Shown here in pieces: positions 1 to 3,000 of a DNA stretch of 40,202 nt (its first letter is position 1; every line of letters starts with the position of its first letter). Source of the DNA: a virus; the UHGV virus genome UHGV-0358046; one strand, 5' to 3'. The position numbers were made by a program.

Positions 1-3000
1 TTAACAGCTAACTCATAGCAACTCATTCCTATTCAGATACTAATTTAACCCTCTGTTTTTACAGAGGGTTTTTGTTTTTATGTATTCATTTCTATTCACT
101 ATACACCATATTTTTCGTCGGTACAGGTGACGGTATTACCTTAAAGGTATACTCTCATACCGTCATGAAAATGGTTTCTATACGGGTGAATTGTGCTTAC
201 CGATACAAAATTAAAAAACCTCAAGCCGCAGGACAAACTGTACAAGGTCTCCGATCGTGACGGGCTGTATGTAGCTGTGCTTACGTCAGGCACGGTCTCG
301 TTTCGCTATGACTACCGTATCAACGGTCGCCGCGAAACACTGGTAATCGGGCAGTATGGGCGTGACGGTATCAGCCTGGCAGAAGCGCGGGAAGAACTGA
401 TTGCTGCAAAGAAGCTGCTTAAAGCAGGCCAGTCACCGGCTGCGGCTAAACGTGACGGTATCAAAAAGATTCGTGGTGCCGAGACGTTTGCGGTACATAC
501 CGACAGTTATATGAAACACGTTATCCTGGCTGACAGTACCCGCGCAATGAAGCAGGCGGTGATCGACCGTGACATACTTCCGGTTCTTGGCAACAAAATG
601 ATGGCTGAAATTACCACATCGATGGTTCGTGATTTGTGTGACCGGATTGTCGAACGCGGTGGTCGGGCAACAGCAGTACAGGCCAGGGAGATCATCAGCA
701 GCGTATACCGTCACGCCAATGACCGTGGTCATGGTTTGTTTAATCCTGCGGCTGACATTAAACCTTCGTCTATCGCCATATTTAAACCACGAGAGCGAAC
801 ACTGACACCAGAAGAAATTGGCCTGTTCTTCCGCACGCTGGATGCCATTGGTGCTATGGGCACTATGAAAATGGCTTTAAAGCTGGTGCTTATCACTATG
901 GTTCGTAAAGGCGAATTCACCAATGCAACGTGGGATGAAATAGATTTTAAAAAATGGACATGGATAATTCCTTCAGACCGCATGAAGGGAAGCCGGGCGC
1001 ACGTTATTTACCTGCCTAAACAGGCACAGGATATATTGGTTGGGTTGCAGATGTGCGCTGGTGGAAGTGAATATCTGGTTCCTGGTCGTTACAATTTCCG
1101 GAAGCCATTATCTAATGCCGCGCTGAACTCTCTGATCGACAGAACGGTGAAAATAATAAATGAAGATGGTGAGCATATTCAGGGCTTCACCGTACACGAT
1201 ATGCGCCGTACAGCCAGTACGTTGTTGCATGAGGCTGGTTATCCTTCAGACTGGATTGAAAAGGCTCTGGCACATGAGCAGAAAGGTGTGCGCGCCGTAT
1301 ATAACAAAGCGGAATACGCCAGACAGCGCGCCTACATGTTGCAGCAGTGGGCCGATATGATTGATTCCTGGATTAACGGGGAGCATACGGATCTGATTCC
1401 GTTCTCCCCGTCGAAGTTTGAGAAGTGGATGGCGGGGGAATAATTTTGCCCGGCACATCCCTGTGCCGCCGCCGTCAGAAGAACCCTGCCTTGTCGTTGA
1501 TGTACTCCGCGTGCGTCTGGATATCACGCAGGCATTTACTCACACCGACGATGTAGCAGAACATGGTGGTCAGTTCCGCCGCCGCGCCCGATACGTCGTG
1601 CCCGTCTTCCTGTAACTTGTTCAGCAGATTCATCAGCAGTGAGTTCTCCGTCAGGCCGAGAACACCAGACGGAGAATGAATCAGGCTGCGGTAGCCGGGC
1701 TTCAGCGGGGCACTGTATTCTTTTTTGTCTTCCAGCTTGATCGCCTCCATAATGGCGGGCATGAAGCCTGACAAGACCTTCTCCACTTTTGTTTCTTGTT
1801 GTCTTAAACGTTTCTCGCATTCAATGAAGTAGCATCGTACCTGACGACCTTTTTCGTTACGCTCGACCATCGCCAGCTCTTTGGCTGTATCGAGGGTGAG
1901 GTGGTAGTCTTTTGCAGGACGGCCTCTGCCTATTTTTTCCCGAACTTGGGAAATAATCATAAAGTCTTGATTTTCAACGAAACCATATTCAGCAATTCGT
2001 TCGACAATCCACGAAGCAAATCGCTTACCTACATCGAGGAAAGAGTGTAAATCACGGGCATTAACGAGAAGAGCGGTTTCGTTGGATATAGTGCCGTTGA
2101 ATACGGGGATGAGTTGACTGGTCATGATGACCTCCTTTGAAGTTTTAGTTAGCAATCACCAGTTAGTAGCTGGTGATCGGGTGTCAACTAGAGCCTTCAA
2201 AGACGCTCCGGGCATATTCCCCTTTTGGGTATTGTATTACGCCTCTCCACCCGACCTTTGTACGGATGTGACTATGCCAAATTGCAGGCATAAAAAAGCC
2301 GCAAAGCTATCGGGTGCGGGTGACCGCTTTGAAGTTCTAGTGCGGTCAGTATGCGATAGCTCTGGCGGCATTGTCAAATCATGCGCCACTGAGTCCAGCA
2401 ATCTCTGCAATACCAATAGCGAGATAATCGCGATTCGTCAGGCGTGATTTTATTGCATATGTCTTAGCTCCACTGAAGTTGTGATTTTATATGGGTTGCC
2501 TTTTACCTCAATAACACGATGAGGATCATTTTTTAGTTCTTCCGTAATCTTCCGTAATGTTCTAACAGCTGAACTTCGGTGTTTATAACGGTAAGTTACA
2601 GTTTCTTTTCTCTGCAATACCTCATCATTGCGGTACTTAGTCAAAACCATGACGACTTCAAACCTGACGCCGTTGTGTGCAACCATAATCTGCTTCATGC
2701 TGCACGCTCCCGCCCCTGGTTGTCTGTTGGTGACAGCGGAGCATTGCTGAATGCATTTGTTAATCTGGCAATATCCAACGCGTATCCAGGGTGTAGTTGC
2801 ACTGCCGGGTCTTCGCACTGATTACCCCAAACATCGAAACCATGAGACGACTGGCGGGCGAACAGTTCAATGCGAGAAACATCGCCTAACAATTGCACAA
2901 GTTTTTCACGAACGATATCTGGCTTTCTTGAATGCTCAAGCCGCGGTGCGGTAAATGACTGAACGATCCCTGCATTAATGCGCGTAGGTAGTTTTCCCTT

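Follow-up and report, generated by a model that had tools for sequence, protein, structure and literature searches.

A probable phiV10/epsilon15-type prophage at the 3′ end of Escherichia coli guaA and the look-alike terminators near its ends

The stretch of viral DNA analysed here, 40,202 nucleotides long and called the window below, very probably holds a phiV10/epsilon15-type (Uetakevirus) prophage of 39,715 bp that lies between guaA and yfgI of E. coli, with the 17-bp core ATTGAGTGGGAATGATT as its junction with the host. Sequence comparison places the crossover within this core, at the 3′ end of guaA, and not in the 27-bp direct repeat found near the ends of the prophage, which corresponds to two related predicted terminators, one brought in by the phage, the other belonging to the host. 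The attachment system is an ordinary and known one, as the integration site, the core, the terminator and the putative integrase sites have all been published or deposited for this phage group. The features discussed below are collected in Table 1.

Table 1 Features at the ends of the prophage, in window coordinates
Feature	Position	Strand	Basis or remarks
attL core end (TT of ATTGAGTGGGAATGATT)	1–2	+	Remaining 15 bases, from the guaA end, immediately precede the window
P′ arm of attP, all phage DNA	3–192	+	Between core and int start codon; contiguous with P arm and core in free phages (phiV10, ZX5)
Phage-borne predicted intrinsic terminator hairpin	47–73	+	Terminator scan, fold, conservation; annotated as rho-independent terminator in phiV10 and epsilon15
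P′-arm cluster of candidate arm-type motifs	119–165	+	CGGTAC 119–124; GGTGACGGTAT 126–136; AGGTAT 145–150; inverted ATACCGTCA 157–165
Tyrosine integrase, 416 aa, with arm-binding N-terminal domain	193–1443	+	Pfam Arm-DNA-bind_3, Phage_int_M, Phage_integrase
Candidate extra Int sites within the int ORF	361–502	+	CGTGACGGTAT 361–371 and 451–461; palindromic CGGTACATACCG 491–502
Candidate Int-binding motif GTGACGGTAT	39619–39641, 119–165, 361–371, 451–461, 491–502		
AlpA-family small DNA-binding protein	3747–3995	−	Pfam Phage_AlpA, E = 3e-5
Rz-like spanin (DUF2514), last phage gene before the P arm	39108–39590	+	Pfam DUF2514, E = 2e-43; same position in phiV10 and epsilon15
P arm of attP	39591–39700	+	GGTGACGGTAT 39619–39629 and ACGGTAC 39635–39641, 12 bp apart; IHF-like TATCACTCAATTG 39669–39681
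Strand-exchange region	39701–39711	+	First 11 bp of the attR core
attR core copy ATTGAGTGGGAATGATT	39701–39717	+	Four-way comparison; published core (PMC9782041)
Host DNA (B′ side), native guaA–yfgI intergenic region	39718–39809	+	Identical to the AR_0013 empty site
Native bidirectional guaA/yfgI predicted terminator hairpin	39744–39770	.	Scan and fold; also at the empty site; the prophage stands between it and guaA
3′ fragment of host yfgI (DUF5384)	39810–39986	−	Pfam DUF5384, E = 4e-31; RefSeq annotation of the identical AR_0013 stretch

Results

The crossover lies in a 17-bp core at the end of guaA

The junction was set by a four-way comparison of a phage attP, an empty E. coli site, attL and attR. 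The attP of phiV10 reads ...cgtaaataATTGAGTGGGAATGATTaacagctaac... and the empty site of AR_0013 reads ...ctaccATTGAGTGGGAATGATTttgatccctgc..., while the attL of IAI39 reads ...accATTGAGTGGGAATGATTaacagctaac... and then continues exactly as the window does from position 1 onward. In the IAI39 attL the left side is host and the right side phage; in the attR of the window the left side is phage and the right side host. The core consists of the last five codons of guaA, its stop codon and TT; since these five codons and the stop codon are also present in the phage, guaA stays intact upon insertion. In the window the core is seen at full length at attR, and for attL it is seen only in other genomes matching the window end, which are 100% identical to the window over positions 1–82; guaA itself lies outside the window and adjoins position 1 in the matching sequences of IAI39 and CE10. 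From 39701 to its end the window is 100% identical to the AR_0013 empty site, where this stretch stands directly after guaA. A Klebsiella attR reads ATTGAGTGGGAgtaatc, so that the core is shared with that host over its first 11 bp only, which narrows the exchange region to ATTGAGTGGGA. With the crossover in the core, window positions 3–192 are all phage DNA and those from 39718 onward are all host DNA. The same core was reported for vB_EcoP_ZX5, whose attB, attL and attR were checked by PCR and Sanger sequencing, and it is cited in that study for phiV10 and epsilon15 as well (PMC9782041). The P4-type tyrosine integrase encoded at 193–1443 recombined attP with the bacterial site at the guaA end, both of which carry ATTGAGTGGGAATGATT.

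When the right and left ends of the window are joined they give the free-phage attP of 328 nt, full length and in one piece, which is 99.4% identical to that of ZX5 and 96.3% identical to that of phiV10. The P′ arm and int together (window 1–1443) share 98.8–99.0% DNA identity with phiV10 and vB_EcoP_ZX5 (99.0% for the latter, int included) and about 82% with Salmonella and Enterobacter members of the phage group. The best E. coli match to the first 20 kb of the window covers 92% of it at 97.7% identity. Both prophage ends are also common to IAI39 and CE10, where the prophage lengths differ by +2164 and −106 bp, respectively. The yfgI side lies inside the window, as a DUF5384 fragment at 39810–39986; an IS3-family remnant, which occupies the window from 40029 to its end, has cut yfgI short.

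These comparisons bear out the initial annotation in taking the sequence ends for prophage ends and in its implied element of about 39.7 kb, the prophage running from 3 to 39717 (39,715 bp). They contradict its proposal that the phage integrates into the terminator of the flanking host gene and regenerates it: an empty attB, named there as the evidence that could refute this, puts the true junction elsewhere, at the guaA core, and the phage brings a complete terminator of its own in the P′ arm while the native one is intact at the other end. We now regard it as exceedingly improbable that the 27-bp repeats form an attachment core in the guaA terminator, with recombination regenerating a hairpin at each end. 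The repeats are genuine, they flank the element, their likeness is far more than chance, and their two loop mismatches could in principle mark a crossover point. However, what precedes the attL hairpin (3–46) is phage DNA, identical in free phage genomes, and what precedes the attR hairpin (39718–39743) is host DNA, identical to the empty site, with ttttgatccctgcactatgaatgaacaa as the host spacer between guaA and the native hairpin. The hybrid junction expected from a crossover in the hairpin was found in 0 of the 5,426 complete E. coli genomes surveyed, of which 564 had the guaA-core-phage attL junction and 4,571 an intact empty guaA site; nor did any of the 131 hairpin-bearing junctions collected combine loop and spacing in hybrid form. 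The published junctions likewise fall at the 17-bp guaA core (PMC9782041).

Two related predicted terminator hairpins lie near the junctions

The two 27-mers, AACCCTCTGTTTTTACAGAGGGTTTTT at 47–73 and AACCCTCTGTTACTACAGAGGGTTTTT at 39744–39770, share 25 of 27 bases, as first noticed, with both differences in the loop; in 300 shuffles of both end regions the best identity never exceeded 20. That each forms a hairpin followed by a T-run also holds, both in a terminator scan and upon folding (−15.9 kcal/mol, z −5.4 for the phage hairpin; −17.8 kcal/mol, z −5.0 for the native one), and we predict that both are intrinsic (rho-independent) terminators. The native hairpin folds on both strands, with −17.8 and −18.6 kcal/mol. 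The two differ in their distance from the core, which is 46 nt for the phage hairpin at attL and 28 nt for the native hairpin at attR, and this difference is general in the junctions that we collected: phage-type hairpins always stand 46–48 nt past the guaA stop codon with the loop TTTT, AAAA, AATT or ATTT, and native hairpins 24–30 nt past it. The native loop is TACT, or once its one-base variant TATT, in 94/94 Escherichia-type copies collected, and CTGC in E. hormaechei. The scan of guaA-downstream regions that underlies these observations missed Salmonella.

Hairpin 47–73 is kept in every related phage while the sequence around it varies. Its stem variants are all A-to-G changes, of three different kinds and in the 3′ arm, with which plus-strand RNA keeps 8/8 pairs through G.U pairing and minus-strand RNA loses one pair; since the variation events are few, they lend modest support to an intrinsic terminator in the plus-strand RNA. 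In a lysogen the phage hairpin would terminate guaA transcription and so shield int from it, and in the free phage it would end the lysis operon, while the native guaA/yfgI terminator remains untouched at the far end of the prophage. A sigma-70 scan of 1–400 and 39400–40202 found no promoter, for int or otherwise.

The two hairpins are probably related by descent, for example through an old capture of host DNA, and are not products of recombination. This common descent is plausible but unproven, because the spacers between core and hairpin in phage and host are without detectable similarity. When the phage spacer (3–46) was aligned with the native ones from E. coli and from four further species, it showed no significant similarity to that of E. 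coli, and one species reached p = 0.02, uncorrected; spacer alignment as a demonstration of host-DNA capture was dropped for want of significant similarity. The hairpins could instead owe their likeness to convergence or coincidence between two independent terminators, which we consider unlikely. The spacers cannot be aligned (a local score of 8, equalled or exceeded in 1961/2000 shuffles), their lengths are unequal (46 vs 28 nt), and terminators are short and compositionally constrained, all of which would suit independent origins. The stems, however, are identical at 8/8 positions and the flanking AA and T-run match too, giving the 25/27 identity against at most 20 in shuffles, and Escherichia and Klebsiella have this very stem in their native guaA terminator, Enterobacter hormaechei a near version of it. 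The phage hairpin adjoins a copy of the guaA end, the layout expected of captured host DNA, and unconstrained phage spacers diverge fast even between close relatives, so that loss of spacer similarity is to be expected. The phage hairpin is present in Uetakevirus phages of Escherichia, Salmonella, Klebsiella and Enterobacter and at attL-type guaA junctions of Citrobacter and Serratia.

Candidate arm-type motifs occur on both arms and inside int

The exact 11-bp repeat reported at 126–136 and 39619–39629 is real and corresponds to GGTGACGGTAT. An inverted partial copy, placed at 160–168 in the initial annotation, also exists, though with its coordinates three off: ATACCGTCA at 157–165 is the perfect complement of 128–136. 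With one mismatch allowed, GGTGACGGTAT has 8 matches in the window (0.35 expected), and CGGTAY has 9 copies in the 647-nt attP-equivalent (0.84 expected). Diverged attP regions for the conservation analysis were taken from a phage collection, as the integrase matches in viral contigs were all at least 99% identical and hence uninformative. The P′-arm motifs hardly vary among 10 attP/attL sequences taken from phages of E. coli, Salmonella, Enterobacter and Klebsiella, and TGACGGTATATAAAACGGTA on the P arm is invariant in 9/9 aligned attP sequences of phages from four host genera. In the GenBank record of epsilon15, the equivalent of 127–136 is annotated as protein_bind 'integrase', the equivalents of the P-arm motifs as integrase and IHF sites, and two int-internal copies as 'integrase' binding sites. 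This conservation across four host genera, together with the epsilon15 annotation, makes the original reading of the 11-bp repeats as candidate arm-type sites credible, and the GGTGACGGTAT/CGGTAY repeats on both arms are predicted to be such sites. The IHF-like TATCACTCAATTG is a putative IHF site, judged from a consensus match read by eye and from the epsilon15 annotation.

Within int, the copies at 491–502 and 361–371 fall within the two longest runs of invariant codons among 8 diverged int genes (493–504 and 364–372), and the copy at 451–461 contains a two-codon invariant run (454–459), against a baseline of only 21% invariant codons at conserved residues in the same genes, a conservation that extends to synonymous positions. 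The integrase has separate arm-binding and catalytic parts (Arm-DNA-bind_3, PF13356, residues 2–87; PF22022; PF00589). Its N-terminal arm domain would bind the motifs on both arms and the copies inside the first 310 bp of int, and the arm sites together with IHF would shape the attP complex. The AlpA-family protein is likely the excision directionality factor; phiV10 has an AlpA-family gene near int on the opposite strand, as in the window. Two further candidates were dropped: a minus-strand motif copy at 705–715, which is not conserved among relatives, as an arm site, and an inverted 9-bp copy of the left part of the core (CACTCAATT, 39671–39679) as a core-type site, since only TCAAT is conserved among relatives and an IHF site fits better.

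There is a small chance that the GGTGACGGTAT repeats serve another role, as an RNase III-cleaved stem, as AlpA/Xis sites or as an operator for int expression. Positions 128–136 and 157–165 are the halves of a perfect 9-bp inverted repeat that stands shortly before int, and in the epsilon15 record the equivalent of 128–166 also carries an RNase III annotation. Yet the RNA fold of 110–192 is no better than that of shuffled sequences (z = −1.9; 10/200 shuffles fold as well), and further copies of the motif stand in direct orientation on the opposite arm and within int, where they have no hairpin partner. The 12-bp-spaced pairs on both arms and an integrase with an arm-binding domain fit a lambda-type design, and we keep to arm-type sites as the preferred reading.

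Discussion

The closest known systems, phiV10, epsilon15 and vB_EcoP_ZX5 at the guaA 3′ end, have the same 17-bp core, integrase, terminator hairpin and integrase-site motifs in the same arm layout, with 96–99% identity over the reconstructed 328-nt attP, and their attachment site shows no difference from that of the window. The phiV10 early region, in contrast, is a different mosaic, with DUF1382 and methyltransferase genes, whereas the window has an AntA-type gene beside int. As in lambda-type heterobivalent systems, the integrase combines an arm-binding N-terminal domain with a catalytic domain, and repeated motifs distinct from the core occur on both arms. As in P4-family integrases, the target gene survives insertion because its 3′ end is supplied by the phage; tRNA-targeting P4-type elements rebuild the 3′ end of their target in this way. 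The window departs from the lambda/P4-type pattern in that its target is the end of a protein-coding gene and not a tRNA, its arm motif continues into the coding sequence of int, and a look-alike of the terminator of the target gene is part of the element as well.

The significance of these results goes little beyond correct annotation. An attL of this type at guaA is found in about one in ten complete E. coli genomes. Direct repeats that flank prophage ends can be look-alike terminators, and boundaries should be set by comparison with the empty site and the free phage. The stem shared by the phage and guaA terminators illustrates how an integrating element replaces what it displaces, and opens no new question. 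A further-reaching proposal, which we consider doubtful, is that the phage hairpin is a captured enterobacterial guaA terminator kept nearly unchanged for a role beyond termination, such as assembling or positioning the recombination complex, and that the arm-site array, reaching about 500 bp into int, makes for an unusually long attP or for direct autoregulation of int.

The guaA 3′ end is also used by other elements. The genomic island GIsul2 inserts there at the reported site GAGTGGGA (PMC9376610), which falls inside the 11-bp exchange region of the window; like the prophage described here, it has a tyrosine integrase and an AlpA protein, but the two are distinct elements whose arms differ. 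In other species, many guaA junctions have another arm type, with a hairpin of its own and repeated CTGGCA motifs.

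The attachment site lies at the end of guaA

Set side by side, attP, attB, attL and attR settle where the true junction lies. The block common to all four is a 17-bp core comprising the last five guaA codons, the TGA stop and TT, and since the guaA stop ends immediately before window position 1, the left core copy in the window is reduced to the final TT. By this comparison, 3-192, including the hairpin at 47-73, is phage DNA, and everything from 39718 onward, including the hairpin at 39744-39770, is host DNA. In sequence searches, window 39560-40202 at the right end matches E. 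coli IAI39 and CE10 with 100% identity, and 39701 onward is identical to strains that carry the same stretch directly after guaA. The left end, including int, has 98.8-99.0% identity to phages phiV10 and vB_EcoP_ZX5 and ~82% to Salmonella and Enterobacter members of the genus Uetakevirus, with the matches of all these phages beginning at window position 1. For vB_EcoP_ZX5, attB, attL and attR were amplified by PCR and Sanger-sequenced, which showed an identical core; the same paper states that it is the attP of phiV10 and epsilon15 too (PMC9782041). For the related phage TL-2011b, insertion within guaA is likewise reported (PMC3293862). The attachment system is the published one of phiV10, epsilon15 and ZX5-type phages at guaA, and nothing at the site is new.

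Attachment sites compared and protein-coding features of the window
Feature	Position or source	Strand	Basis or sequence
attP	phiV10		...gccgtaaataATTGAGTGGGAATGATTaacagctaactca...
attB, empty site	AR_0013		...gccagctaccATTGAGTGGGAATGATTttgatccctgcac...
attL	IAI39		...gccagctaccATTGAGTGGGAATGATTaacagctaactca...
attR	window		...tatcgtaaataATTGAGTGGGAATGATTttgatccctgcac...
Arm-binding domain and tyrosine recombinase (int)	193-1443		Pfam
AlpA-family protein	3747-3995	minus	Pfam
DUF2514 Rz-like protein	39108-39590		Pfam
DUF5384 (yfgI) fragment	39810-39986	minus	Pfam

The initial annotation had placed the junction in a 27-bp repeat, with integration into the host terminator. The repeat itself is real: 47-73 (AACCCTCTGTTTTTACAGAGGGTTTTT) and 39744-39770 (AACCCTCTGTTACTACAGAGGGTTTTT) are identical at 25 of 27 bases, with both mismatches in the loop, and shuffling the two end regions 300 times never gave a best 27-mer identity above 20. 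Both copies are terminator-like in a terminator scan, a stem followed by a T-run, and fold at -15.9 and -17.8 kcal/mol, respectively (z ~ -5 against shuffles), the latter on both strands. A crossover within them predicts an attL in the order guaA, native spacer, hairpin, phage P' arm. Among 5,426 complete E. coli genomes, counted at ≥80% coverage, this hybrid junction occurs in none, the order guaA, core, phage spacer, phage hairpin in 564, and the intact empty site in 4,571. Across all junctions collected, phage-type hairpins, whose loop is TTTT, AAAA, AATT or ATTT, always lie 46-48 nt past the stop codon, and native hairpins 24-30 nt past it, with TACT in all Escherichia-type copies (TATT once) and CTGC in E. 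hormaechei; none of these junctions is a hybrid of the two in spacing and loop. The empty site of AR_0013 also places the junction at the guaA core, away from the hairpin. Crossover in the hairpin is thus ruled out by the four-site comparison, the missing hybrids and the published core, so that the proposed junction and integration mechanism were wrong, and the site was already known. The prophage ends, the element size of about 39.7 kb and the identification of both hairpins as terminators were correctly judged.

Strand exchange and other elements at guaA

Klebsiella narrows the exchange region further. A K. pneumoniae lysogen has the attR ...taaataATTGAGTGGGAgtaatcccc..., Klebsiella attL has the phage-type ...GGGAATGATTAACGG (locus L129), and the only sequence common to host and phage is ATTGAGTGGGA; on these sequences, strand exchange must fall within 11 bp, window 39701-39711. 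The site reported for GIsul2, an unrelated island at guaA, is GAGTGGGA (PMC9376610), which falls inside this stretch. Because K. pneumoniae and the phage have just 11 bp of core in common, integration alters the guaA end there from GAG TAA to GAA TGA (L282 7618-7700; L129), leaving the last Glu codon synonymous and the stop codon different.

The guaA 3' end is a known target of further elements such as GIsul2. Our genome scan found the guaA stop followed by a shared non-Uetakevirus sequence, TTTAACGTCTGGCAACAGCC...AAGCCCGCGTAACTGCGGGCTTTTTT...TCTGGCA, in many species (of Yersinia, Pantoea, Kosakonia, Tatumella, Serratia and Scandinavium, and even in a Thiobacillus MAG). This sequence contains a separate hairpin and repeats of CTGGCA, and probably represents the arm of a further widespread element that integrates at guaA. 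Some viral contigs have it immediately after the P arm and core of the phage, implying tandem occupancy of guaA.

Two terminators with one stem

Every related attP and attL examined, whether from E. coli, Salmonella, Enterobacter or Klebsiella phages, keeps the phage hairpin between freely varying spacers; the hairpin also occurs in attL-type junctions of Citrobacter and Serratia genomes. Its stem variants (GCAGAGGG, ACAGGGGG and ACGGAGGG) differ by A-to-G substitutions, all of them in the 3' arm, which leave 8 of 8 pairs intact through G.U pairing in plus-strand RNA and break one pair in minus-strand RNA. This strand-specific pairing fits a terminator of rightward transcription, which is also how the hairpin is annotated in the records of phiV10 and epsilon15. 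In the lysogen it would end guaA transcripts before they reach int, the co-oriented gene that follows, and in the free phage the lysis operon would end there. In viral contig L274, two attP copies have the loop flipped from TTTT to AAAA with the stem unchanged, as would be expected if the loop of a palindrome were inverted.

The hairpin at 39744-39770 is the native convergent guaA/yfgI terminator. Its stem is identical in Escherichia (loop TACT) and Klebsiella (loop GTTT), with a near version in E. hormaechei and different hairpins in some other genera. A look-alike of a conserved host terminator beside a copy of the guaA end is the arrangement expected of an old capture of host DNA, and common descent of the two hairpins is likely, short of demonstrated because the core-hairpin spacers of phage and host are not alignable. 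That the phage's replacement terminator has the stem of the native one is a minor curiosity.

Candidate arm-type integrase sites

The repeat GGTGACGGTAT occurs exactly at 126-136 and 39619-39629, as initially annotated, and with one mismatch allowed matches the window 8 times against 0.35 expected. An inverted partial copy, ATACCGTCA, also exists, at 157-165 (complement of 128-136), three bases from the 160-168 first assigned. In the P arm (39619-39641) GGTGACGGTAT is followed 12 bp apart by ACGGTAC; in the P' arm (119-165) CGGTAC and GGTGACGGTAT, 12 bp apart, precede AGGTAT and the inverted ATACCGTCA. Across phages from four host genera, these blocks show little or no variation. CGGTAY has 9 copies in the 647-nt attP-equivalent (39591-39717 plus 1-520) against 0.84 expected; no other stretch of equal length has more than 4.

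Four of the nine copies lie inside int, grouped at three places: 361-371, 451-461 and the palindrome CGGTACATACCG at 491-502, the first two places encoding RDGI in frame. Among eight diverged int genes, in which merely 21% of conserved-residue codons are identical, these copies are conserved at synonymous positions: those at 491-502 and 361-371 lie inside the two longest invariant codon runs (493-504 and 364-372), and that at 451-461 contains a two-codon run (454-459). This suggests that attP reaches into int, or that int is autoregulated. The epsilon15 GenBank record marks integrase-binding sites at the equivalents of 39620-39629, 127-136, 362-371 and 452-461, besides three IHF sites and the terminator. 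Conserved motif copies, this annotation and the Arm-DNA-bind_3 domain of the integrase (Pfam) together support the earlier proposal that the repeats are arm-type sites, which we consider probable. The alternative that 128-166 is an RNase III stem is unsupported by folding (z = -1.9).

Gene content and mosaic relatives

At 39810-40202, a remnant of an IS3-family transposase, which reaches the window end, truncates host yfgI so that the last 58 codons are left. IAI39, CE10 and AR_0013 share this layout, with a group II intron reverse transcriptase on the far side of the remnant. Within the prophage, a 259-nt direct repeat (1472-1730 and 32905-33163, 94% identity) spans the 3' ends of two antirepressor-like minus-strand genes, AntA-type (1475-2155) and Bro-N-type (32908-33645), whose proteins thus have a C-terminal module in common. 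The exact prophage is absent from the complete E. coli genomes of the collection (best match for 1-20000, 92% coverage at 97.7% identity); IAI39 and CE10 have both ends identical to those of the window and prophages of different length, so different mosaic relatives occupy one guaA site.
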